Source of the DNA: a virus
IMG/VR virus record: IMGVR_UViG_3300021142_000012
Span: 1-64,000 of that record
Direction: 5' to 3' (one strand)
Length of the DNA: 64,000 bases
The notes under the pieces were generated by a model. The model did no database searches. It worked only from the letters and a program-made list of their open reading frames with translations, and was not told the origin of the DNA. Each line of letters begins with the position of its first letter. The first letter of the stretch is position 1. The translations under genes and the position numbers were made by a program. Of the stretch, positions 28,909 to 46,086 are shown in pieces.

Positions 28909-29640
28909 ATGAAAGATATATTACAAGACCTAGTAGCACATACACACTCACTAGGGTTTATTCCGCTAGTTAAAGTTTCTAGTACTGCATCAGCAACTGA
29001 TATCGAAGCTATGGCCGAAGATCGTTCAGTTATTGTACAGGCTAAAACAAATAGCCCAGTAGATGAGTTCGAAGGCGTATTTGGTATGCCTAACTTAAAC
29101 AAGTTAGATATTCATTTAAAGTGTCCAGAATATAAAGAAGATGCAAAGATTAGTATTGTTACAGCAGAACGTAACGGTGAAACTATTCCAACAGGTTTAC
29201 ATTTTGTAAATGCCGCAGGCGATTTTGAAAATAACTATCGTTTTATGAATACTGAAGTTATCAATGAAAAACTTCGTTCAGTTAAGATGCGTCAAGTACC
29301 TTGGGACATTGAGTTTGAACCAACTATTGCTAGTATTCAAAAATTACGCTTTCAAGCGGCGGCACACTCGGAAGAGACAGTGTTTGAAGTTAAGACAGAC
29401 GGTACTAATTTGATATTCAGCTTTGGCGATGCGTCAACACACGCTGGCTCATTTATTTTTGCATCGAATGTTGTTGGCAAATTGAAACAAACTTGGGCAT
29501 GGCCTGTTAATCAAGTTATGGCAATCTTAGCGTTAGCTGGCGACAAAACTATGCGTATTGCAGATGCAGGTGCTATGCAAATTAGTGTAAACAGTGGTTT
29601 AGCTGAGTACAACTATATTCTTCCAGCACAAAGCAAGTAA
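28909..29640 (+). CDS. Putative sliding clamp (gp45/PCNA-like)
   Basis: ~243 aa, immediately after the polymerase; beta/alpha two-domain pattern ending YNYILPA; a clamp loader is present in the window. Confidence 0.6.
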   Translation: MKDILQDLVAHTHSLGFIPLVKVSSTASATDIEAMAEDRSVIVQAKTNSPVDEFEGVFGMPNLNKLDIHLKCPEYKEDAKISIVTAERNGETIPTGLHFVNAAGDFENNYRFMNTEVINEKLRSVKMRQVPWDIEFEPTIASIQKLRFQAAAHSEETVFEVKTDGTNLIFSFGDASTHAGSFIFASNVVGKLKQTWAWPVNQVMAILALAGDKTMRIADAGAMQISVNSGLAEYNYILPAQSK

Positions 29641-31322
29641 TGAATAAGAATCTAACTGCTACACAAAACGACTATGCCTTCTTTTTGCCGGCAACGTCTG
29701 GATTCTATAGTACTTTCATAGGCAAACAACGCTATAGTAACTATGTAGATCCTGCACGTATTCCTGCTAGTTTTACCAACGGCGTAGAAGGTTTGAACTA
29801 TCTAGAACCCGATAAAGGTATGTTTTATTTCGATCATTGTTTGTATTCGGCAGGACATGCTAACTTAGATTTGTCTAAGCCAGATGAAACCGAAGACATG
29901 TTTCGTAATAGAGATCGTACAACCAGTTGGGTATTAGGTGACTCTGGTGGTTTCCAGATCGGTAAAGGTGTGTGGGCAGGTGAATGGAAGGATCCGACCG
30001 GTCCAGAAGTGCTGGCTAAATTACAGGATTGTATTGCTAAGGGTGTTGAATTAATCCCAGTATACGATGCTAGCGGAACACAAAAAGTAGATAAGAACGG
30101 AAATCCAAAGTTTACTAAGTTTGATCATGTTAAAGATTATACTGCTAAATTAGAAGCCGCACAAAAGAAGCGTGAACAAGTATTAGCATGGATGGATGCA
30201 CTTATGGACTATGGCATGGTACTTGATATTCCAGCATGGGTAGAACGCAGTGAAGTCGGTAAGGCGGCAACCGGTATTGAAAGTTATGATCAAGCCGTAG
30301 AAGCAACCAAATACAACAATGAATACTTTATCAAGCATCGTACAGGTGCTTGCAAGTTCTTAAATGTGCTTCAAGGCGAAACACACACCCAAGCTGAAGA
30401 CTGGTATCAGAAAATGAAAGACTTTTGTGATCCTAAAGTCTATGGCGACAAGGCTTTTAATGGTTGGGCCATGGGTGGACAGAATATGTGTGACGTAGAA
30501 TTAGTTTTGAAAAGATTAGTGGCATTACGCTTTGACGGACTCCTTAAAAAGGGTCAACATGATTGGATGCACTTCCTGGGCACCTCTAAGTTAGAGTGGG
30601 CAACTTTATTAACTGACATACAACGTGCCGTAAGGAAATATCATAATGAAAACTTTACCATCTCTTTTGATTGCGCCTCACCGTTCCTTGCAACAGCAAA
30701 CGGTCAAATCTACATCAACACTGAAACAGAGCATAACGAAAAATGGGTCTACCGTATGCAGGCTAGCGCAGACGATAAAAAGTACGCACACGACACAAGA
30801 CTGTTTAAAGATGCAGTAATACAAGACAAATGGTTTGATAAGTTTGAATCTAGTCCTATTATCGATCAAGTGCAAATAAAAGATATCTGTATCTATGCGC
30901 CCGGCGACCTAAATAAGAATAGTAAAGAAGGTAAGACTAGTTGGGATAGTTTTAGCTATGCTATTATGATGGGACATAATGTGTGGATGCATATTAATGC
31001 TGTACAAGAAGCCAATCGTCAATATGATAAAGGTGTTTCTCCTGCTATGTTGATTCAAAGACTTACAGGAAAATTATTTAAAGATGTAGTAGATGAGATA
31101 TTCTCTATCAATGATAGGACTTTAGCTCTTGAAGCTGTCAACAAGTATCATAAATTTTTTGAAACTATTATTGGTACTAGAGGTGCAACAGGCAAAAAAC
31201 TCACTAATGCACATACCTATGCAGACGAACTTGACATTCCTCGAGTTGATTATAGTGATTTGAAACCTGTAAAAAAAGAAGAACCCGTAACTAACACATT
31301 TGACAGTTTATTTGAAGTATGA
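29640..31322 (+). CDS. dpdA: DpdA-like DNA-guanine transglycosylase (TGT fold)
   Basis: TGT motifs DSGGFQ, MVLDIP, VLQG, AMGG, HFLG, SFDCAS and HN; neighbours folE, queD and queE. Confidence 0.8.
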   Translation: MNKNLTATQNDYAFFLPATSGFYSTFIGKQRYSNYVDPARIPASFTNGVEGLNYLEPDKGMFYFDHCLYSAGHANLDLSKPDETEDMFRNRDRTTSWVLGDSGGFQIGKGVWAGEWKDPTGPEVLAKLQDCIAKGVELIPVYDASGTQKVDKNGNPKFTKFDHVKDYTAKLEAAQKKREQVLAWMDALMDYGMVLDIPAWVERSEVGKAATGIESYDQAVEATKYNNEYFIKHRTGACKFLNVLQGETHTQAEDWYQKMKDFCDPKVYGDKAFNGWAMGGQNMCDVELVLKRLVALRFDGLLKKGQHDWMHFLGTSKLEWATLLTDIQRAVRKYHNENFTISFDCASPFLATANGQIYINTETEHNEKWVYRMQASADDKKYAHDTRLFKDAVIQDKWFDKFESSPIIDQVQIKDICIYAPGDLNKNSKEGKTSWDSFSYAIMMGHNVWMHINAVQEANRQYDKGVSPAMLIQRLTGKLFKDVVDEIFSINDRTLALEAVNKYHKFFETIIGTRGATGKKLTNAHTYADELDIPRVDYSDLKPVKKEEPVTNTFDSLFEV

Positions 31323-32536
31323 AAAAACGAATAGGTATCATCGGAGTCGGTACTGCTGGCATTGTTAATCTTTCTTATTTTTTAAGTTTGTTAAGCAATG
31401 ACTACGAAGTCGTATCTATATACGATCCGTCGATACCTATTCTCGGTATTGGTGAAAGTACTAATCCCGGATTTATTAGAATACTAGAGCAGGGTACTAG
31501 ATTTTCTATTTCCGAAGATACGCACCATCTTGATAGCACATACAAATTTGGAACCCAATTTATTAATTGGCGAGAGCATGATTGGCTTAATCCATTAATT
31601 GGCGGCGGTATCGCTGTGCATTTTAATAATTTTAAATTAAAAGAATTTGCTTTTGAACGATTTGCCAAATTATGGCCAAAAAAGTTTTCTGTAATTGAAG
31701 GAACAGTTAATGAAACTATTGATAAGTTTAATAGTGTTAAGCTCATCATCGATGGAAGCGAAGAACTATTTGATTATATCATAGATTGTAGCGGATTTCC
31801 CAAGGACTATTCTACAGACTATGTTCATAGTAGTTGTAGTCTGCTAAACCATTGCTATGTACATAGTTTTGAAAAATTTGATCCTATACCCTATACAGAA
31901 CATATTGCTACCCAAAACGGTTGGATGTTCGGTATTCCGTTGCAATCTAGAAAAACATATGGCTACTTATTCAATGACACTATCACTACAGAAGACGATG
32001 CCAAACAAGATATGGCAGCTACTTTAAAAATTTCAGTTAGCGAATTAAAATTAAGAGAATACAAATTCAAACCTTATTATACTACTAGACTAGTTAATAA
32101 TAATATTATGAAGAATGGTAATCAAGCATTGTTCTTTGAACCGATTAGTGCTACTTCGATTAATCAGTATGTTAGTACCTGTCATATTTTGTTTGATTAT
32201 ATTATGGAAAATATATCTGAAGAACAGGCTAATGCACAATTTATTCACGAATCGAATGTAACTGAGGATATCATAAATTATTATTATCACGGTGGTACTA
32301 ATTTTGACAGCACATTTTGGCAAGCAGCCAAAAAAAATGCCATCAATAATCTTAAAGATAACCAACGTTTTAAAACAATCTTAGACCAAAATCAAATGGC
32401 AAATGACATCGGACTTCCATATAATGGCCCCGCCCATTTGTTCACTGCTTATAGTCTACAGATTATTGATGAAGGATTTGGCTATAATTACTTCAAAGGT
32501 TCTCCAAGACCGTTTGACAATGTAGACAAATCATAG
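31319..32536 (+). CDS. Divergent flavin-dependent tryptophan-halogenase-like protein
   Basis: GVGTAG, GIGEST, TYKFG, IDCSGF, GWMFGIP, FFEPISAT. Confidence 0.7.
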   Translation: MKKRIGIIGVGTAGIVNLSYFLSLLSNDYEVVSIYDPSIPILGIGESTNPGFIRILEQGTRFSISEDTHHLDSTYKFGTQFINWREHDWLNPLIGGGIAVHFNNFKLKEFAFERFAKLWPKKFSVIEGTVNETIDKFNSVKLIIDGSEELFDYIIDCSGFPKDYSTDYVHSSCSLLNHCYVHSFEKFDPIPYTEHIATQNGWMFGIPLQSRKTYGYLFNDTITTEDDAKQDMAATLKISVSELKLREYKFKPYYTTRLVNNNIMKNGNQALFFEPISATSINQYVSTCHILFDYIMENISEEQANAQFIHESNVTEDIINYYYHGGTNFDSTFWQAAKKNAINNLKDNQRFKTILDQNQMANDIGLPYNGPAHLFTAYSLQIIDEGFGYNYFKGSPRPFDNVDKS

Positions 32537-36834: not shown

Positions 36835-37045
36835 TCGATTAGAAGAATTATATCAAGAGATGTTAAATGTAACATCGCATATGGTTGAAGAATATGGTGG
36901 TATGGAAGTTGCTGCTATTATGATGGCGCAGGCCCTTAGCATTTATAAAACTGGTTTAGATGAAATCGACTATAACAAAATGGTCGATAGTATTTCTGCT
37001 AGTCGTTCTAAGGTTCAAAAATTTACTCCAACTTTTTTACAATGA
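36827..37045 (+). CDS. Hypothetical protein
   Basis: AAGGA RBS; 72 aa. Confidence 0.6.
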   Translation: MTDRLEELYQEMLNVTSHMVEEYGGMEVAAIMMAQALSIYKTGLDEIDYNKMVDSISASRSKVQKFTPTFLQ

Positions 37046-37590
37046 AAAAACGTACTATTAGTAATGACGAATATAGAGGACTAGTTCAAAATATTTGTCG
37101 AGAAATCGAATTAAGCAAGTGGCGTCCAGATTATATTGTGGGTATTACTCGAGGTGGACTGGTTCCTGCTGTTATGATTAGTCAATATTTTGATATACCC
37201 ATGTGGACCTTACGAGTTAATCTGCGTGATCATGCAGAAACAGAATCAAACTCTTGGATGGCTGAAGATGCTTTCGGCTATATACCAGAGGACTGGCGTG
37301 AAGGTATTGATAAACGTGACGATCCTACATTTAGCAAAAAAATACTTGTAGTTGATGATATCAATGATACAGGTGCTACTATTAATTGGATTACAGAAGA
37401 TTGGCAATCCAACTGCTTGCCTAAGGAAGAACGTTGGAATCATGTATGGAATCAGAATGTTCGATTTGCAGTAGTCATCGATAATGTAGCTAGCAAGTGT
37501 AATGTTAAGATGGATTTTTGTGGCGAAGAAATTAACAAAGAAGAAGATCCAGTATGGATTGACTTCCCGTATGAAGGATGGTGGAAATGA
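37042..37590 (+). CDS. Type I phosphoribosyltransferase (xanthine/guanine PRT-like)
   Basis: VGITRGGLVPA and the PRPP-binding ILVVDDINDTGAT. Confidence 0.88.
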   Translation: MKKRTISNDEYRGLVQNICREIELSKWRPDYIVGITRGGLVPAVMISQYFDIPMWTLRVNLRDHAETESNSWMAEDAFGYIPEDWREGIDKRDDPTFSKKILVVDDINDTGATINWITEDWQSNCLPKEERWNHVWNQNVRFAVVIDNVASKCNVKMDFCGEEINKEEDPVWIDFPYEGWWK

Positions 37591-37799: not shown

Positions 37800-37962
37800 A
37801 CTAACTCCTCAAGCTCTTGAAGAAAAGATTAAAAAAGTCGAAGACGATTTAAAGCTATTACGTACTACAGGTGATGCTAGTCGTAAAACTGAAGTTCTTA
37901 ACGAATATATTGAATATCTTAAAGACGAGTTAAGAGACCTACAGAGTGCTCGCCGCCCATAA
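37792..37962 (+). CDS. Small coiled-coil protein (56 aa, not in the ORF track)
   Basis: MTELTPQALEEKIKKVEDDLK...SARRP. Confidence 0.6.
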   Translation: MTELTPQALEEKIKKVEDDLKLLRTTGDASRKTEVLNEYIEYLKDELRDLQSARRP

Positions 37963-38515
37963 TTTAAACTCTCTTAGTCCGTTTATTCGCGGATATTACA
38001 TAGATCCGGAGATATGCGATCGCATTGTAGCTGAATCCAATCTGCGTAAGAAAGATTTTATGCAGGGTCAACTAATCAATAATGCTGTAGAATTTACAGG
38101 TGGACGATTAGACGATTATACCCCTGCTGTCCGAGATCCATATGTCGAAGCACTGTTTGAGGTAATCGAAGAGTACAAGAAAGAGTTTAAATTTTCTTAT
38201 GAAATTATAGATATGTGGGGCTTACCTCCCGGAATGAAAGTACAATACTATACTCCAGGGCAAGCATTTAGAATATGGCATTGCGAAAGTAGTGGGGATC
38301 CTGTTTCCACATCAAGACATTTAGTCTATATGACATATCTAAATACGATTGAAGACGAAGGTGGTACTGAATTTTATCATCAACAGATAAAGGTTAAACC
38401 AGAAAAAGGATTGACCCTAATTTGGCCTGTTGATTGGACTCATACACACCGAGGAGTTCCTTCGGCTACAGAAGAAAAATATATTATTACAGGATGGTGG
38501 ACGTTTCAACGATGA
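37946..38515 (+). CDS. 2OG-Fe(II) oxygenase (prolyl-hydroxylase-like)
   Basis: WHCE...YLN...GGTEF...HTHRG...KYIITGW. Confidence 0.88.
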   Translation: MLAAHNLNSLSPFIRGYYIDPEICDRIVAESNLRKKDFMQGQLINNAVEFTGGRLDDYTPAVRDPYVEALFEVIEEYKKEFKFSYEIIDMWGLPPGMKVQYYTPGQAFRIWHCESSGDPVSTSRHLVYMTYLNTIEDEGGTEFYHQQIKVKPEKGLTLIWPVDWTHTHRGVPSATEEKYIITGWWTFQR

Positions 38516-39075
38516 AAGAACATGTTATAAACAAAACTAACGATTTTATTCGTGGATATTACATAGATCCAGAGATATGCGATCGTATAGTATCTGAATC
38601 TAAAATACACAACTTTAGAAGTGGTGTAATGCAGTATACTGATATTAATCTAGAAGAGTTTAGTAAGGAAACTTGTGATTCATATACAAACGCCCTGTTT
38701 GAAGTTATTGAAGAATATAAAAAAGAGTTCCGGTGGAGTTATGAAAAGGTAGTCATGTGGGGATTGCCTCAAGGTATCAAAGTACAACACTATGCTCCAG
38801 GCAAATGGTACGATCAATGGCATTGCGAACGTGCAGGTGATGTACCATCACTATTTCGTCATCTAGTATACATGACATACTTAAACGATGTCGAAGATGG
38901 CGGTGGTACTGAATTCTATCATCAAAAGATTATAACTAAGGCAGAAAAAGGATTGACCCTAATTTGGCCGGTTGACTGGACTCATATGCACAGAGGCGTA
39001 GTTGCACCAACTGAAGAAAAAATGATTATTACCGGATGGTGGATGTTTAAAGGACCAGAAGATGAGATTAAGTAA
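38512..39075 (+). CDS. 2OG-Fe(II) oxygenase, tandem paralog
   Basis: WHCE...YLNDVEDGGGTEF...HMHRG...KMIITGW. Confidence 0.88.
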   Translation: MKEHVINKTNDFIRGYYIDPEICDRIVSESKIHNFRSGVMQYTDINLEEFSKETCDSYTNALFEVIEEYKKEFRWSYEKVVMWGLPQGIKVQHYAPGKWYDQWHCERAGDVPSLFRHLVYMTYLNDVEDGGGTEFYHQKIITKAEKGLTLIWPVDWTHMHRGVVAPTEEKMIITGWWMFKGPEDEIK

Positions 39076-39319
39076 AAAACATCAAAATTGGGATAGTCGC
39101 ATACCTGCTCGAGATGAGGGATATGTTCATGTAGTTAGATTACCCTGGACTGGTCAATCTAGCTATTGGTGGAATGAAGCATGTGCCGATATTATGGAAG
39201 TATTTGGATTGCCCGGTGACCGATTTACCAGCCATCCTACAGCAGATTACATGGATTTTTATTTTAAATCAGAAAAGGACGCAACATTATGCAAAATACT
39301 AGTATCAGAGAAAAATTAG
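39062..39319 (+). CDS. Hypothetical protein
   Basis: 85-aa ORF. Confidence 0.6.
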   Translation: MRLSKKHQNWDSRIPARDEGYVHVVRLPWTGQSSYWWNEACADIMEVFGLPGDRFTSHPTADYMDFYFKSEKDATLCKILVSEKN

Positions 39320-39489
39320 AAACCTTTGTTGTTGCTATCATAGGCATCATTGGATTCGGTTTTGCCCTTTATTGGAATTATACCCATCCTCATGTTACTG
39401 TTAAGTATGATTGCTCAATAGCTGAAATTAGCCCAGACTATCCTGTACAAGTTAAAGAAGGTTGTCGTAAGCTAAATGCCAGAAAATGA
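39289..39489 (+). CDS. Small membrane protein with a Cys pair
   Basis: TM segment followed by YDCSIAEISPDYPVQVKEGCR. Confidence 0.55.
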   Translation: MQNTSIREKLETFVVAIIGIIGFGFALYWNYTHPHVTVKYDCSIAEISPDYPVQVKEGCRKLNARK

Positions 39490-39584
39490 AAAGCGATACC
39501 AGAGTACTTGTAATCATGTGGATTAGTTTGGCTATACTAGGCGGTGCATTGGGCTTAATAATCTACGGAATACAATCATTATTG

Positions 39585-39614
39585 TTGACAGCGACCTAAA
39601 TAAACCTATATAAT
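39585..39614 (+). promoter_or_regulatory. Sigma70 promoter of folE with an embedded CTAAATA
   Basis: TTGACA-18 nt-TATAAT. Confidence 0.7.
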
Positions 39615-39618
39615 AACA

Positions 39619-39653
39619 TATAGACATCCACGTCTATAACTCGGAGAACAGAT
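39619..39653 (+). ncRNA. Candidate cis-regulatory RNA (mini-pseudoknot) in the folE leader
   Basis: TATAGAC-atccac-GTCTATA stem; loop UCC is complementary to GGA of the RBS. Confidence 0.4.
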
Positions 39654-40466
39654 TTGACAACATTTACAACAGAAGACTTAAAAGCAGTATTAGAAAATAA
39701 TCCTGATCTAGTTAAAGAAGCACCATATCATCCAGGATACGAGGATGCTGCCATGAACATGGGCGATAAAGGATATGAAGAAGCAAATCTTGCTGATGCT
39801 ATCCGTTTCAATATGAAGCGTGATAAGAAACGCTTTTGGGCCGGAGACAATATTAGTGAATATGTAGTTGGGCATAGAGATGAACTAATTGCTAATGCAA
39901 CTAAAGCCTTTGAAGGAGTGTTAGACGCACTCTTGATTGATAGAGAAACAGATCCAAACTCACAAGGCACAGCACGACGCTTGGCCAAGATGTATTTTAA
40001 CGAAATTATGGGAGGTCGATATGATCCAGCACCAGATTGCACAGCTTTTCCAAATGATAGCCAAGATAGATATGAAGGTATGCTTGTTGTTCGTAGCGAG
40101 TTGCGTTCTATGTGTAGCCATCACCATCAACCTGTTAGTGGTGTTGCATACATCGGAATTATTGCAGCCAATAAACTTATTGGCTTGTCTAAATATACTA
40201 GGATTGCTCAGTGGTGTGCTCGTCGTGGCACTCTTCAAGAAGAACTCTGTAACGACATCGCCCGAGAAATAATGCGGGCAACTGATTCAGAGCATGTGGG
40301 CGTGTATATTCAGGCCACGCATGGTTGCTGTGAAAATCGTGGCATCATGGCGCATTCGAGTCTGACACAGACCACTGTGCTCAAAGGTGCATTCAACACA
40401 GACCCAGGAACCAAGAAAGAGTTCATGGACAATATCAAACTTCAACAGGACTTTGCCCCAAGATGA
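39654..40466 (+). CDS. folE: GTP cyclohydrolase I
   Basis: SMCSHH, IGLSK, LQEEL, HGCCENRG; TTG start. Confidence 0.95.
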   Translation: MTTFTTEDLKAVLENNPDLVKEAPYHPGYEDAAMNMGDKGYEEANLADAIRFNMKRDKKRFWAGDNISEYVVGHRDELIANATKAFEGVLDALLIDRETDPNSQGTARRLAKMYFNEIMGGRYDPAPDCTAFPNDSQDRYEGMLVVRSELRSMCSHHHQPVSGVAYIGIIAANKLIGLSKYTRIAQWCARRGTLQEELCNDIAREIMRATDSEHVGVYIQATHGCCENRGIMAHSSLTQTTVLKGAFNTDPGTKKEFMDNIKLQQDFAPR

Positions 40467-40881: not shown

Positions 40882-41057
40882 AAAAAATACTTGCTAGAAT
40901 AGCCAGCGAGATGTTATACTACTTAGGGCATTGGATTAGTTTTCCAATGCAGTTGTTTGATTGGGCATGGTTGTATCCAACATATAACAAACTAATGTCG
41001 TGGAGTAGTAACATACAAGACTGGGCAGGCAATGATAAACCGTGGATTAAGATATGA
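40878..41057 (+). CDS. Small Trp-rich protein (59 aa, not in the ORF track)
   Basis: ATGA overlaps at both ends; MKKILARIASEMLYYLGHW...KPWIKI. Confidence 0.55.
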   Translation: MKKILARIASEMLYYLGHWISFPMQLFDWAWLYPTYNKLMSWSSNIQDWAGNDKPWIKI

Positions 41058-41899
41058 GTAAACTTAAAGTAGCAGAATTGTTTTATAGTATACAAGGTGA
41101 AGGACGCTTTATGGGTGTACCCAGCGTGTTCCTTAGAACTTTTGGCTGCAATTTTTCTTGTAGGGGATTTGGTATGCCCAAAGGCGAATTAAGTGAGGAA
41201 TACTTAAAAGTAGACCCAATAAATTTTAAAACGTACAATGAACTTCCACTAGTGAGTACAGGGTGTGATAGTTATGCATCATGGGATCCTAGATTTAAAG
41301 ATCTTAGCCCGATGATAGAAAGCGATGGAATTGTTGATCGCATTATGGAGATACTTCCATATAAAGGTTGGGTAGATGAACACTTGGTTATCACAGGCGG
41401 TGAACCTCTGCTAGGTTGGCAACGTGCTTATCCTGATTTGTTAGATCATACTTATATGAAACCATTGCGTGATATTACATTTGAAACAAATGGTACTCAA
41501 AAATTAACTGATGATTTTAAAGAATATTTGTTGGATTGGACTTTACGCGATCATAACTTTAAACAAATTACATTTAGCGTCAGTGCTAAATTAAGTTCAA
41601 GCGGTGAGCTTGCTAGCGATGCTATTAAACCCGAAGTCGTTAATGAGTATCAGGAAGTAGGATTTACATATCTCAAATTTGTAGTTGCTACAGAAGATGA
41701 TGCTGAAGAAGCATTAGAAACAGCAGACATTTATAGAGAAAATGGATTCACTGGGCCTGTATACTTAATGCCAGTCGGTGGCGTTGAAAGTGTGTATAGT
41801 CTCAATAATCGTCGTGTTGCAGAATTGGCTATGAAGATGGGCTTGCGTTACAGTGATCGTTTACAAGTCCCATTATTTAAAAATGAGTGGGGAACCTAA
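41054..41899 (+). CDS. queE: QueE, 7-carboxy-7-deazaguanine synthase (radical SAM)
   Basis: ELFYSIQGEG, FLRTFGCNFSC...CDS, ITGGEP, FETNGT. Confidence 0.88.
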   Translation: MSKLKVAELFYSIQGEGRFMGVPSVFLRTFGCNFSCRGFGMPKGELSEEYLKVDPINFKTYNELPLVSTGCDSYASWDPRFKDLSPMIESDGIVDRIMEILPYKGWVDEHLVITGGEPLLGWQRAYPDLLDHTYMKPLRDITFETNGTQKLTDDFKEYLLDWTLRDHNFKQITFSVSAKLSSSGELASDAIKPEVVNEYQEVGFTYLKFVVATEDDAEEALETADIYRENGFTGPVYLMPVGGVESVYSLNNRRVAELAMKMGLRYSDRLQVPLFKNEWGT

Positions 41900-42330
41900 T
41901 GAAAAAATTATTAAGAAGATGGCTAGGTATTAGTGCGTTAGAAGCTGAAAAAGAATTATTACAACAGGCTAGAGACAAAGCAGTCGCTGAAACAGTGATA
42001 GCTCAAACCAAAGAAGAACAAGCCAAAATGGATCCAAAGGATCGTGCTACTGCTCGAGGAGAGCCGTGGGTATCTGTGTTAGACACACATATTAACAAAG
42101 ATAATATTCGTAATGGATTTTTTGAGTTAGATTGGAATGATATCTTTGTTCAAGAATTGATTGCTTCCGGATATGGCTATGAAGCAGATCCGCCAGAGCA
42201 AATTGTAGATCGTTGGTTTAGAGATCTAGCAAGAAATATGTTAGCAGAAGAAGGAATGGATCCTAATAGATCTACTTCTGGATATATTAATGTATCTAAG
42301 ATCAGTAATACCAAATCGGAAATATCATGA
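41899..42330 (+). CDS. Hypothetical protein
   Basis: ORF coupled by TAATG overlap. Confidence 0.65.
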   Translation: MKKLLRRWLGISALEAEKELLQQARDKAVAETVIAQTKEEQAKMDPKDRATARGEPWVSVLDTHINKDNIRNGFFELDWNDIFVQELIASGYGYEADPPEQIVDRWFRDLARNMLAEEGMDPNRSTSGYINVSKISNTKSEIS

Positions 42331-42917
42331 CCTATAAAGTTATAGATTCGAATGAGTATATCGATACATATAATTTTAGTTCATTAATTACCAAAGCTGA
42401 TACTCAAGAAATAATGCAGATTTCTAAAAGCATTATTGACAGCGGTCTTTATTTTGAAAATAGCCCAAAATATCAAACTAAAGAAAATTTGTTTGGGCGA
42501 GATGAAAAAGTATTCTTAAAAATGCGCCAAAGTTTTATCTATAGTTGCTTTATGTATTTGGGTAAGGAAGTAAAGATTAAAGGCATCAATAGTTGGGTGT
42601 TTATGACTAAGAAAAGCGATGAACCTGATCGTGACAATCTTTGGCACAAGCATCATTACGATGAACCCTGGGGTAAATTGAGCGGCATTTTCTATTTACA
42701 TATACCAGATGATATTGTTGATAGAGAACTATGCGGTACTGAATTTAGTGAAACTAGTGAAAATGTAAGAGCCCAATTACCAACTAAAACCTTCTTTGTA
42801 AGGCCAAAAGACTTGACTTGGCACATATATCCTAGTAAAATGTGGCATAGGTCCGGAATTACCAATTCCGATGAATATCGTTTTGTTTATGCCGCAGATA
42901 TGGATTATTACGAATGA
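42327..42917 (+). CDS. Putative 2OG-Fe(II)/DSBH oxygenase
   Basis: WHKH...LSGIFYL...GTEF...YPSKMWHR. Confidence 0.65.
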   Translation: MTYKVIDSNEYIDTYNFSSLITKADTQEIMQISKSIIDSGLYFENSPKYQTKENLFGRDEKVFLKMRQSFIYSCFMYLGKEVKIKGINSWVFMTKKSDEPDRDNLWHKHHYDEPWGKLSGIFYLHIPDDIVDRELCGTEFSETSENVRAQLPTKTFFVRPKDLTWHIYPSKMWHRSGITNSDEYRFVYAADMDYYE

Positions 42918-43603
42918 TAAATCGTATTAGGAGTTTGTATCCTACAACAGAGTTTACTCCCAGTTGGAATTTTCCCATCTATACTAGTCAATGGGCTGAT
43001 ATTGAAAAAATAGACAAGATTAGAAATTGGCTACTTGAAAAAGAACAAGATTTTATTACTGCATATCCATATCATCACGATGGCGGAGCAGCCTTAGGAA
43101 AAGATAGTGTTACTAGTAGACATGGATTATATAGTCTATTTTGGTTTGAAAAAGAAATTCCAGAAATTATAGATCTATTAGAGTTTATTAGAAAATCTTA
43201 CATTGATTTTATTACAGAAGAAAATGCTAGTCCAAGAGAATCATATATTGTTTCTTGGTTTAATGTCGCTAGAAAGGGTCAAGATATTAAACAACATGCT
43301 CACGGCGCTGATCATGAATCGTATCTAAGTGGCAATATGCATCTAGATACCTATGACACATATAATGCATTTATATCACCTTATGATGATAGATCTTCTT
43401 TTATCAGAGATAATATCAAAGGCGGTATTTCTATGTTTCCAAGTTGCTTACCTCATTACAGTAGTGTGTACCAAGGCGATGAACCTCGCGTAAGTATAGC
43501 GTTTGATTTAAGAATTAAGCCAACAAAACAACATGGTTTCGGAGTTGAATCAATTCCGTTCATGAATACTAGCATTTATAATCAACTCACCGCAGAAAGT
43601 TAA
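42914..43603 (+). CDS. Putative 2OG-Fe(II) oxygenase (TIGR02466-like)
   Basis: SWFN...HAH...YLSG...FPSCLPH...RVSIAFD. Confidence 0.75.
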   Translation: MINRIRSLYPTTEFTPSWNFPIYTSQWADIEKIDKIRNWLLEKEQDFITAYPYHHDGGAALGKDSVTSRHGLYSLFWFEKEIPEIIDLLEFIRKSYIDFITEENASPRESYIVSWFNVARKGQDIKQHAHGADHESYLSGNMHLDTYDTYNAFISPYDDRSSFIRDNIKGGISMFPSCLPHYSSVYQGDEPRVSIAFDLRIKPTKQHGFGVESIPFMNTSIYNQLTAES

Positions 43604-43604
43604 T

Positions 43605-44603
43605 ATGACATACATTTTAGTTGATACAGCTAATACATTTTTCCGTGCTAGACACGTAGTACAAGGCGATGCCGATATTAAGTTAGGTATGGCATTCCAC
43701 ATTACATTTAACAGTATTAAGAAAGCATGGCAGGACTTTGGCGGTACTCATGTGGTGTTTTGCTTAGAAGGTCGTAGTTGGCGTAAGGACTATTACAAAC
43801 CTTACAAGGCAAATCGTCAAGAAACTCGCGATGCTATGACAGTTAAACAGCAAGAAGAAGATAAATTGTTTTGGGAAGCATTTGATCAATTTAAAGACTT
43901 TATTAGTGAAAAAACTAATTGTACAGTACTACAACATAAACAACTAGAAGCAGATGATTTAATTGCAGGTTGGGTACAGGCACATCCAGATGCAAAGCAT
44001 GTTATCATTTCAACAGATGGTGACTTCGCACAACTAATCAGCCCTAATGTGAGCCAATATAACGGTGTGGGTGATTTACATATTACACACGAAGGTATCT
44101 TTGATGCTAAAGGTAAACCTGTTAAAGATAAAAAAACAGGCGAGCCCAAGCCAGCACAAGATCCAGAATGGATGCTATTCGAAAAATGCATGCGTGGTGA
44201 TACCAGTGATAATGTCTTCTCGGCGTATCCAGGTGTGCGTACTAAAGGTTCTAAAAACAAAGTTGGGTTGATGGAGGCGTTTGCTGATCGTAAGACTAAA
44301 GGATATAATTGGAATAATCTAATGCTTCAGCGTTGGGTAGATCACAATGGTGTAGAACATCGTGTCTTAGAAGATTATCAACGTAATGTACAGTTATGTG
44401 ATCTAACAGCACAACCTGATGATATTAAAGTTTTAATTAAAGAGACGATTGAAGCAGGTGCAAAACCTAAAGATATAACACAAGTAGGTATTCGTATGCT
44501 AAAGTTTTGTAATGCATGGGACATGAAAAAGATTGCAGACAATGTCCAACAATATGCAGAACCGTTACAGGCCAAATACAACAGAGAGGTAGTAATTGAT
44601 TAA
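43605..44603 (+). CDS. rnh: T4 RNase H-like 5'-3' exonuclease
   Basis: LVDTAN, YKANR, LEADD, STDGDFAQL, GDTSDNV. Confidence 0.9.
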   Translation: MTYILVDTANTFFRARHVVQGDADIKLGMAFHITFNSIKKAWQDFGGTHVVFCLEGRSWRKDYYKPYKANRQETRDAMTVKQQEEDKLFWEAFDQFKDFISEKTNCTVLQHKQLEADDLIAGWVQAHPDAKHVIISTDGDFAQLISPNVSQYNGVGDLHITHEGIFDAKGKPVKDKKTGEPKPAQDPEWMLFEKCMRGDTSDNVFSAYPGVRTKGSKNKVGLMEAFADRKTKGYNWNNLMLQRWVDHNGVEHRVLEDYQRNVQLCDLTAQPDDIKVLIKETIEAGAKPKDITQVGIRMLKFCNAWDMKKIADNVQQYAEPLQAKYNREVVID

Positions 44604-46086
44604 AGCACGTGGTGTAAAGAAAGTAGTAATTGTAGGTGGCGGCACTAGTTCATGGTTGACTGCCGCATGTTTATCATTTCAAAAACCTCACTATGAGATT
44701 ATAGTGATTGATAAAGAGGTAGGTACTCCTGTAGGGGTTGGCGAAGGAACCTTATTGGGATTTGCTGATAGCATGTCTAAAGCTGGATTTAATATAGAGG
44801 ACTGGTTTTTTGAAATTGATGCAACTTTTAAATCAGGGATATTATTTCCAGGTTGGACTAACGATGGCACAGATGTATGGCATCCATTCATGTTCCCCCA
44901 ATATACTAATATCAATATTTCAAATTTAGATTTATGGTCAAAACATCAAAATCTAGATCTTAAAACTACCGCATTAGCATTGTATGATGTGTCTGTTAAT
45001 CTTAAGAAGGTCGACCGTGATACCTTGCTTAACTATGCTTACCATATTGACTGCGGTAAATTAGTTTCTTTTATACAAAAGAAAATTGTAAACATTCGCA
45101 AAGTATCATTAATTAAATCAGAAGTAGTTGATATACAAAGAGATAATAAAGAAATATCTAAATTAGTTTTAAAAGACGGGCAAGAAATAACCGCAGATTT
45201 GTTTGTTGATTGCACAGGATTTAAAGGTATGTTAAACGAAGCACCTGATCGTGTGACATTTGAAAATCGTTTATGGTGTAATACTGCGGTTGCTGGTCAT
45301 ATTCCGTATATTGACAAAGCAACAGAGATGAATCCGTATGTTGTTAGTGAAGCTGTTGATCACGGGTGGATTTGGAATATCCCTGTACAGACACGTATCG
45401 GTTCCGGACTGGTGTTTAACAGAGATATCACTAGTGTAGAAGAAGCAAAAGAATATTTCTGTAAGTATTGGGATAACAGAATATCTCCCGAAAATCTTAA
45501 AGTAATCAACTGGACTCCATTTTATAATCGAAATATGTGGCACGGTAATGTTGTTAGTGTTGGACTAAGTGCAGGATTTATCGAACCATTAGAAAGTACT
45601 GGTGTTGCATTAATTGTTAGCGGCATATATGAAATGATTGCAAGATTGGACTTAGATTATTACACAGAAAAAGATGCTGACATGTTTAATTCAAAACTAG
45701 CAATGTTTTTCGAAGAAGCAGTTGATTTTGTAAGTATGCATTATTCTATTAGCGAAAAAGATATACCTTTCTGGAATTGGGTTAAAGAAACTAGATTTAA
45801 ATCCGATACTCAAAAAATCTTTGAAGAAAAATTAGCAAACAATTATCCATTACCGATGGTTGGCAAAGGTGCAATTTTTTCCGGAGCAAATTGGTTTGGT
45901 TGGCTAATACAATTAGGTTATCCTATGGGCAATAAGAATGTTCCATTGTCAGATGAAGAAATTGAACAACTTATATCTAGCCATAAGACTACTGAATTAA
46001 ACAAAACAACTGCTATACTACACACAGAGTATATAGAAGTATTAAGGCGTGAAGAAGAACCATTTTTAGGATTTTCAGGAACTTGA
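44596..46086 (+). CDS. Flavin-dependent tryptophan-halogenase-like protein
   Basis: VGGGT, GVGEGT, ATFKSGI, GWIWNIP, GFIEPLESTG. Confidence 0.85.
   Translation: MIKARGVKKVVIVGGGTSSWLTAACLSFQKPHYEIIVIDKEVGTPVGVGEGTLLGFADSMSKAGFNIEDWFFEIDATFKSGILFPGWTNDGTDVWHPFMFPQYTNINISNLDLWSKHQNLDLKTTALALYDVSVNLKKVDRDTLLNYAYHIDCGKLVSFIQKKIVNIRKVSLIKSEVVDIQRDNKEISKLVLKDGQEITADLFVDCTGFKGMLNEAPDRVTFENRLWCNTAVAGHIPYIDKATEMNPYVVSEAVDHGWIWNIPVQTRIGSGLVFNRDITSVEEAKEYFCKYWDNRISPENLKVINWTPFYNRNMWHGNVVSVGLSAGFIEPLESTGVALIVSGIYEMIARLDLDYYTEKDADMFNSKLAMFFEEAVDFVSMHYSISEKDIPFWNWVKETRFKSDTQKIFEEKLANNYPLPMVGKGAIFSGANWFGWLIQLGYPMGNKNVPLSDEEIEQLISSHKTTELNKTTAILHTEYIEVLRREEEPFLGFSGT

Follow-up and report, generated by a model that had tools for sequence, protein, structure and literature searches.

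The leader of a phage folE gene, which encodes GTP cyclohydrolase I, is by comparative sequence evidence an H-type pseudoknot that sequesters the Shine-Dalgarno (SD) sequence. It belongs to a widespread structured RNA that is missing from Rfam and has at least 130 distinct copies. The leader lies in the window, a 64,000-nucleotide stretch of IMG/VR record IMGVR_UViG_3300021142_000012. The source record is a phage contig of 108 kb with 38% G+C and an estimated completeness of 29%; it is a fragment of a giant freshwater phage. The predicted pseudoknot spans about 24-28 nt of a leader of approximately 33 bases.

Materials and methods

FolE relatives in IMG/VR were searched by protein, blind to the leader, which yielded 80 loci; with the window, these made up 81 folE sources. 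The covariance model R1 was built from the folE leaders. A DNA pattern comprising loop, linker, and SD was also searched for, and 185,579 species genomes were scanned with a stringent pattern. Two thirds of the 130 pooled copies came from a pattern that fixes loop and SD, and the invariance of these elements is read from the two protein-based sets alone. The alignment held one representative per stem/loop/linker type and was cut past the third SD base, so that an inserted G aligns. The preQ1-I comparator was the type III riboswitch of the E. coli/Shigella yhhQ leader (RF00522; PDB 8FZA; PMC10622847, PMC11625349).

Results

The folE gene and its promoter

The gene and its promoter elements are as follows.

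39585-39590, + strand: -35 hexamer TTGACA, from a consensus scan (12/12 promoter)
39596-39602, + strand: CTAAATA in the promoter spacer, present in the spacers of 78 of 127 motif-bearing folE promoters
39609-39614, + strand: -10 hexamer TATAAT, after an 18-nt spacer from the -35 hexamer
39654-40466, + strand: folE (GTP cyclohydrolase I), TTG start, 270 aa; Pfam PF01227 (GTP_cyclohydroI), 1.4e-38

The FolE identity was also obtained from PHROG 2197 and the NCBIfam FolE models. No start codon intervenes between an in-frame stop and the TTG at 39654, and the conservation of this codon as ATG or TTG in homologues fixes the start there. Among motif-bearing leaders, 75 are followed by TTG and 52 by ATG; TTG starts are enriched in folE homologues with the motif and rare in those without it. 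Together, the start and second codon (39654-39659) spell TTGACA, a sequence identical to a -35 hexamer, as they do in over half of the genes that carry the motif. With no matching -10 after it in the window, the hexamer probably arises by chance from TTG next to ACA.

Only one other perfect 12/12 sigma-70 match occurs in the 32-48 kb region besides the folE promoter, which is among about a dozen near-consensus promoters that precede genes in the 108-kb record. A sigma-70-like promoter stands at equal distance in most homologous folE leaders. Given the usual 7-nt distance from the -10 hexamer, the transcription start is predicted at approximately 39620-39621. The spacer element CTAAATA is no general feature of the other strong promoters of the source genome. 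It resembles the late-promoter core of T4-like phages and may serve as an additional, late promoter or as an operator. In 26 other motif-bearing leaders, the promoter is of a second conserved type, TAGTTGTAATAAACTATTAGAGATGTTAAAATAA. Upstream, a hydrophobic-rich ORF of 37 codons (39486-39599) ends inside the folE promoter with its stop codon at 39597-39599; no family match was found for this ORF.

Architecture of the leader

Read from 39620, the leader is AUAGAC-AUCCAC-GUCUAU-AACUC-GGAG-AACAGAU-UUG and begins within bases of the predicted start. Its parts are listed below.

39620-39625, + strand: 5' strand of stem P1, AUAGAC, with the conserved core G39623, A39624, C39625
39626-39631, + strand: hexaloop AUCCAC; A39626 is L1, U39627-C39629 form the 5' strand of P2, and A39630 and C39631 follow
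39632-39637, + strand: 3' strand of P1, GUCUAU, paired with 39620-39625
39638-39642, + strand: linker L3, AACUC, nearly invariant across copies
39643-39646, + strand: SD sequence GGAG; GGA at 39643-39645 is the 3' strand of P2 and pairs with UCC at 39627-39629

A 7-nt spacer, AACAGAU, separates GGAG from the UUG start. The hairpin is the minimum-free-energy fold, at -7.8 kcal/mol against -3.4 +/- 1.9 for shuffled sequences, and one of 200 shuffles was as good. Across the copies, the median hairpin stability is -3.4 kcal/mol, and 19% are weaker than -2. The comparison of leaders described below establishes an H-type pseudoknot with a P1 of 3-6 bp, an L1 of A, a P2 of 3 bp, a junction of [A/U]C, and an L3 of about 5-8 nt with AACUC at its end.

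Distribution of the motif

R1 detected the motif in 61 of the 81 folE sources, once in each, with scores of 35-64 bits versus at most 19 bits for everything else. These 61 share hairpin, loop, linker, and SD. About a quarter to half of related folE genes are without the motif. The DNA pattern gave at least 120 matches, and 119 of the 120 listed have the stem and then folE. Pooled from IMG/VR phage contigs, the distinct copies number at least 130 and span freshwater and marine-type contigs. In both R1 and pattern matches, the motif invariably heads either folE itself or a short ORF that has folE behind it. It also precedes folE genes of a second clade, whose enzyme is 39% identical to that of the window, and the promoter types there are the same. 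Because it is present in clades that are only 39% identical, the leader cassette is better conserved than the FolE protein. Each of five large motif-bearing genomes has exactly one strong R1 match, at folE; one of these genomes is complete (346 kb, with terminal repeats).

The short ORF, of 129-132 aa, lies between motif and folE in eight loci (L104:548-937, L109, L119, L171, L059, L060, L077, and L017). Where it intervenes, the motif keeps the 5' end of the operon. The ORF overlaps the folE start (ATGA) and encodes an acidic tail ending in SLFEE; no significant match to it was obtained in Pfam (best E = 0.24), nor any in PHROG. A role as a trans-acting factor was rejected, as the ORF occurs in only eight loci and is absent from the source genome.

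In two folE leaders (L002:2920-2952 and L005:25-57), the hairpin is cleanly deleted, and the promoter and AACTCGGAGAA are kept. These leaders are natural 'hairpin-less' controls.

The scan of 185,579 species genomes returned 17 matches, of which 15 were stem-less chance matches in high-GC coding DNA. The other two (L214 and L215) are folE contigs of 4-5.5 kb in two different Crocinitomicaceae MAGs and are probably phage contigs. They are a weak hint at best that Crocinitomicaceae is the host family, because these phages use sigma-70 promoters and SD sites. Four further matches (L139, L359, L360, and L411), like the high-GC ones of the scan, were dismissed as chance, since the stem, folE, or both are absent. 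A blastn comparison of 39400-40000 with 50,697 phage isolates gave no match. R1, run with filters off, did not detect the motif in the three isolates whose FolE is closest (Sinorhizobium phage Phosso, Rhizobium phage RHph_I1_18, and Vibrio phage 2.275.O), and searches of isolates by DNA or FolE found no cultured carrier. The distribution of the motif is, in effect, phage-only.

Covariation in P1

In each of the 130 distinct copies, the three loop-proximal positions of P1 are paired: the third always as G-C, the middle one in every Watson-Crick form (A-U 58, U-A 57, C-G 14, and G-C 1), and the closing one as C-G in 122 copies, A-U in five, and G-C in three. Among 49 distinct leaders, the middle pair is U-A in 27, A-U in 11, C-G in 10, and G-C in one; the closing pair is C-G in 41, A-U in five, and G-C in three; and the third pair is again invariant. 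The P1 covariation score of these 49 leaders was 0.274 versus 0.069 for shuffled sequences, with none of 500 shuffles as high, and it collapsed once the partners were slid. In the structural alignment of representatives, it was 0.408 versus 0.113. Wobble pairs in P1 were too few for the comparison of strands by G-U versus A-C counts. The outer P1 pairs are optional, which fits a transcript beginning 4-6 nt before the loop.

Covariation between the loop and the SD sequence

The loop reads AUCCAC in 82 of the 130 copies, AUCCUC in 47, and AUACCUC in one; hence, its last two positions (5-6 of the hexaloop) are AC in 82 and UC in 48. Rare loops in the second FolE clade are ACCC[A/U]C, AUCCCC, GUCCUC, and AUCCAU. 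The exceptions at positions 5-6 are CC in L290 and a decayed AU in L288, in which the loop C and GGA are both lost. L1 is a single A in all copies but one, which has G (L285). The linker is AACUC, or AACAUC in the GCA/UGC stem class, so that L3 as a whole reads (N)NUAACUC or UUAACAUC; in 118 of the 130 copies, 11 nt separate the end of the loop from GGA. Six unpaired positions are thus nearly invariant, namely A1, [A/U]5, C6, and the AAC of the linker.

UCC and GGA were invariant in the first protein-based set, and the variants came from the second FolE clade. In L295, the loop ACCCUC stands with the SD GGGAG. Targeted scans showed that, among true motifs, an ACCC loop is always accompanied by GGGAG and GGGAG always by an ACCC loop (L340, which is the L295 contig, L350, and L351, all three with a GCA stem; and L446, with a GAC stem). 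The remaining matches had neither stem nor folE. No copy with ACCC and GGAG or with AUCC and GGGAG was found in these scans. L446 has a FolE of the window type; L340, L350, and L351 belong to the other clade. For L446, L340, and L351, the nearest FolE relatives in each case have standard AUCC/GGAG leaders; therefore, the double change from U-A to C-G arose at least twice. In the 40 representative rows, the P2 pair U39627-A39645 is U-A in 37, C-G in three, and unpaired in none. One further copy, L056 (loop AUACCUC, SD UAGGAA), keeps 3 bp by a register shift to CCU:AGG.

The first-pass annotation, made from the letters of the window alone, had described the -10 box, hairpin, loop, linker, GGAG, and TTG correctly, as re-reading of the window confirmed. 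It had also placed a stem at the very 5' end of the folE mRNA and proposed that the UCC of the loop pairs with the GGA of the SD. P1 covariation supports the former, with the start position itself being predicted, and the change of U to C together with that of GGA to GGG, in at least two lineages, bears out the latter. The comparison of leaders from related phages that it had suggested found loop and linker conserved and the stems co-varying.

Pathway context

folE is followed 0.6 kb downstream by a second gene of the 7-deazaguanine pathway.

41054-41899, + strand: queE-like radical SAM gene; PHROG 2076 (9e-51) and QueE NCBIfam models

A queE homologue was near folE in 156 of the loci retrieved, and QueD (PTPS) and QueE were present in all five large motif-bearing genomes. 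QueC was not found in these five genomes, and the source record and five related genomes, of which one is complete, gave no TGT-family match. Because QueD and QueE are present and QueC and TGT absent, the pathway is one of 7-deazaguanine synthesis that lacks QueC, and folE is its first step. The earlier supposition that the leader sits on the first step of its pathway thus holds, with folE heading FolE-QueD-QueE.

Weak QueC matches adjoining queE were rejected, as they are to an NAD-synthase-family protein (PF02540, 5.6e-50). A gene for such a PP-loop protein directly follows queE at L484:964-1731 (genome G003) and G005:C1:52439-52633, in two related giant-phage genomes without QueC. The protein might amidate CDG; the presence of the gene does not track A or U at loop position 5.

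Second copies of the motif, or copies before queD or queE, were not found. Weak R1 matches before queD reflect a shared ribosome-binding stretch, UAACAUAGGAGAA, directly after the -10 box, with the hairpin absent. At queD, a conserved promoter, TTTACA-17-TATAAT, is directly followed by TAACATAGGAGAA (L489, which is G002:87600-87800; L490; L039:5639-5667; and similar loci). The GCA-class folE leaders share this ribosome-binding stretch but also have the hairpin, which is absent at queD.

Other genes of the neighborhood were recorded. Two tryptophan-halogenase-family genes (31319-32536 and 44596-46086; Pfam 2.3e-37; PHROG 1.4e-106) flank the deazaguanine genes. Four 2OG-Fe(II) oxygenase genes (37946-39075 and 42327-43603) and a phosphoribosyltransferase gene (37042-37590) are nearby. 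A 560-aa ORF (29640-31322) gave no Pfam, PHROG, or PDB sequence match.

Comparison with known RNAs

The closest likeness is to preQ1-I riboswitches. In type III, P2 is made with the GGA of the SD; in preQ1-I, an A/U-C dinucleotide precedes the 3' strand of P1, with the C base-pairing with the ligand, and linker adenines lie in the P1 minor groove (PMC11625349, PMC10622847). The folE leader is likewise an H-type pseudoknot of about 30 nt with SD bases in P2, A/U-C directly before the 3' strand of P1, and adenines in the 3' linker. preQ1-I is a 7-deazaguanine-linked translational OFF switch that buries the SD, and the folE leader, whose OFF role is putative, would be the same. The differences are as follows. 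The loop has 6 nt, versus approximately 9 in preQ1-I. L1 is A rather than U/UU. The closing pair of P1 is mostly C-G, whereas preQ1-I has a conserved 5'-G-C whose O6 contacts the aminomethyl group of preQ1. The linker ends in UC before P2 and has two conserved A, versus a run of 4-5 A. The P2 register is UCC:GGA, versus CCU:AGG in the E. coli RNA. The downstream gene is folE rather than yhhQ, queT, or queCDEF. Because three defining features fail (the closing pair, L1, and the A run before P2), the folE leader is a motif separate from preQ1-I. The first reading of the window had already noted a mismatch to the preQ1-I consensus and pointed to Rfam as a check; in agreement, cmscan against 4227 families at E <= 10 gave nothing relevant, and no preQ1 match was found on 39000-40200 or 39605-39675 (71 nt).

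The THF-II riboswitch, or folE motif RNA (PMC9881143), is, as the phage leader would be, a cis-regulatory RNA in a folE leader with translational control. It is a longer hairpin with internal loops from Gram-negative bacteria in a folate context, whereas the phage leader is a hairpin with a 6-nt loop plus a pseudoknot in a QueD/QueE context. Identity with THF-II was rejected, since the architecture differs and no Rfam match appeared at a permissive threshold.

Luteoviral frameshift pseudoknots, such as that of beet western yellows virus, have nearly the same topology and size, with a stem of 4-5 bp, a loop of 1-2 nt, a stem of 3 bp, 1-2 junction nt, and an A-containing minor-groove loop of about 7 nt. 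They occur within the reading frames of plant RNA viruses, where they stall the ribosome for frameshifting; unlike them, the folE pseudoknot is at the 5' end and contains the SD. In the T4 gene 32 leader, a pseudoknot upstream of the SD nucleates binding of the protein it regulates. With this leader and other phage operators, the folE leader shares a phage-encoded structure in the 5' leader and a role, putative at folE, in fixing how much a single gene is translated; it differs in that the SD is part of the knot and a protein partner is not evident. A full-text literature search found no description of a phage folE leader RNA, and folE, cyclohydrolase, and riboswitches all go unmentioned in the main text of a large survey of structured RNAs in IMG/VR.

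Discussion

The pseudoknot would fold at the very 5' end of the folE mRNA and act in cis, with the linker AACUC crossing the minor groove of P1. The folded state should block 30S binding because three of the four SD bases sit in P2; hiding of the ribosome-binding site would lower initiation at the mostly-TTG folE start. What, if anything, governs the fold was considered under four readings. We rank a ligand-stabilized OFF switch first because the helices are weak, the unpaired bases are nearly invariant, and the topology is that of preQ1-I. At the junction of P1 and P2, the invariant C faces an empty position, and a guanine-like base could insert there opposite it. A product of the pathway that resembles guanine (CDG, preQ0, or another 7-deazapurine related to them) would pair with this C before the 3' strand of P1, stack between P1 and P2, and stabilize an otherwise marginal fold. 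That the folE leader is an OFF riboswitch for such a product is a tentative proposal, to which we give somewhat less than an even chance, and both repression and ligand are part of what is proposed. A pterin or GTP as the ligand has no specific support.

The [A/U]C before the 3' strand of P1 and the GGA-containing P2 match the descriptions of preQ1-I type III, which favors a switch. On the other side, the motif is phage-only, although cells might also be expected to have a sensor for a common metabolite. The pocket would be extremely small, with a loop of 6 nt versus at least 9 in preQ1-I, and conserved loop and linker would also be expected for ligand-free base triples or a protein site. The lack of three preQ1-I pocket features (the 5'-G closing pair, U in L1, and the poly-A run ahead of P2) and the sizeable share of related folE genes without the motif weigh against a switch as well. 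Owing to the phage-only distribution and the very small loop, the riboswitch reading calls for caution.

A constitutive attenuator or 5'-end stabilizer fits the sequence data equally well as control by ligand or protein. In this case, an effector-free pseudoknot would cap the 5' end against decay and fix a low initiation rate under a very strong promoter; it might also serve as a temperature-sensitive throttle. Compact H-type pseudoknots of 26-28 nt, with a 3-bp second stem and an A-rich minor-groove loop, are stable without ligand in luteoviral frameshift signals, and such stability lends weight to the constitutive alternative. The hairpin starts only a few bases from where transcription is predicted to begin, the excess of weak TTG starts over ATG starts with the motif (75 versus 52) fits deliberately low translation, and confinement to phages agrees as well. 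However, the invariant unpaired C and its A/U-restricted neighbor would be left unexplained, as would the occurrence at folE only among strongly promoted genes, and marginal helices are odd for a purely protective or attenuating structure. We rank a constitutive role second, as a real possibility but one well below an even chance.

We consider it unlikely that the leader is an operator at which a phage or host protein, possibly FolE or another pathway enzyme, binds loop and linker and locks or unlocks the SD. T4 gp32, gp43, RegA, and the coat proteins of RNA phages act thus on their targets. Hairpins bound by proteins typically have, as here, a specific loop on a variable stem whose G-C/C-G core hardly varies; in addition, the motif is specific to phages, and the whole promoter-leader cassette is kept before FolE clades that are 39% identical. 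Nevertheless, no co-occurring candidate partner was found, the 129-132 aa ORF being confined to its eight loci, and the FolE N-terminal extensions vary in length (proteins of 227-282 aa). Moreover, P2 covariation shows that the loop is used in RNA-RNA pairing, which leaves little for a protein.

A DNA-level element, that is, an inverted repeat at +1 acting as a dimeric-repressor operator or cruciform, is very improbable: the repeat does overlap the predicted transcription start and the spacer does hold a second conserved motif, CTAAATA, but across 130 copies the middle pair varies through all four Watson-Crick forms and never mismatches, the loop is invariant and lacks symmetry, and the DNA reading is rejected because the loop co-varies with an SD 11 nt downstream, which only an RNA pseudoknot explains.

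Returning to the ligand-stabilized OFF switch, its fullest form is more speculative than the switch alone. The leader may represent a new riboswitch class with the smallest natural aptamer known (about 26 nt versus about 30-34 for preQ1-I), virus-only so far, which would sense CDG or a derivative accumulated without QueC, feed back on GTP cyclohydrolase I, and thereby gate the flow of host GTP into DNA hypermodification. If it is a riboswitch, the C-G floor of the pocket, flipped relative to preQ1-I, would by analogy reflect a ligand with a 7-substituent other than aminomethyl.

At 26 nt, the RNA is easy to synthesize, probe, and crystallize, and the question of a ligand is cheaply testable. 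Even if the pseudoknot proves constitutive or protein-operated, it is a covariation-backed structured RNA in two FolE clades. If it is ligand-sensing, the lower bound on the size of natural aptamers would move down, and viruses would have a riboswitch class of their own for the first time. No regulatory element would have been described earlier for 7-deazaguanine modification of phage DNA, and giant phages would be shown to meter the drain on host GTP.
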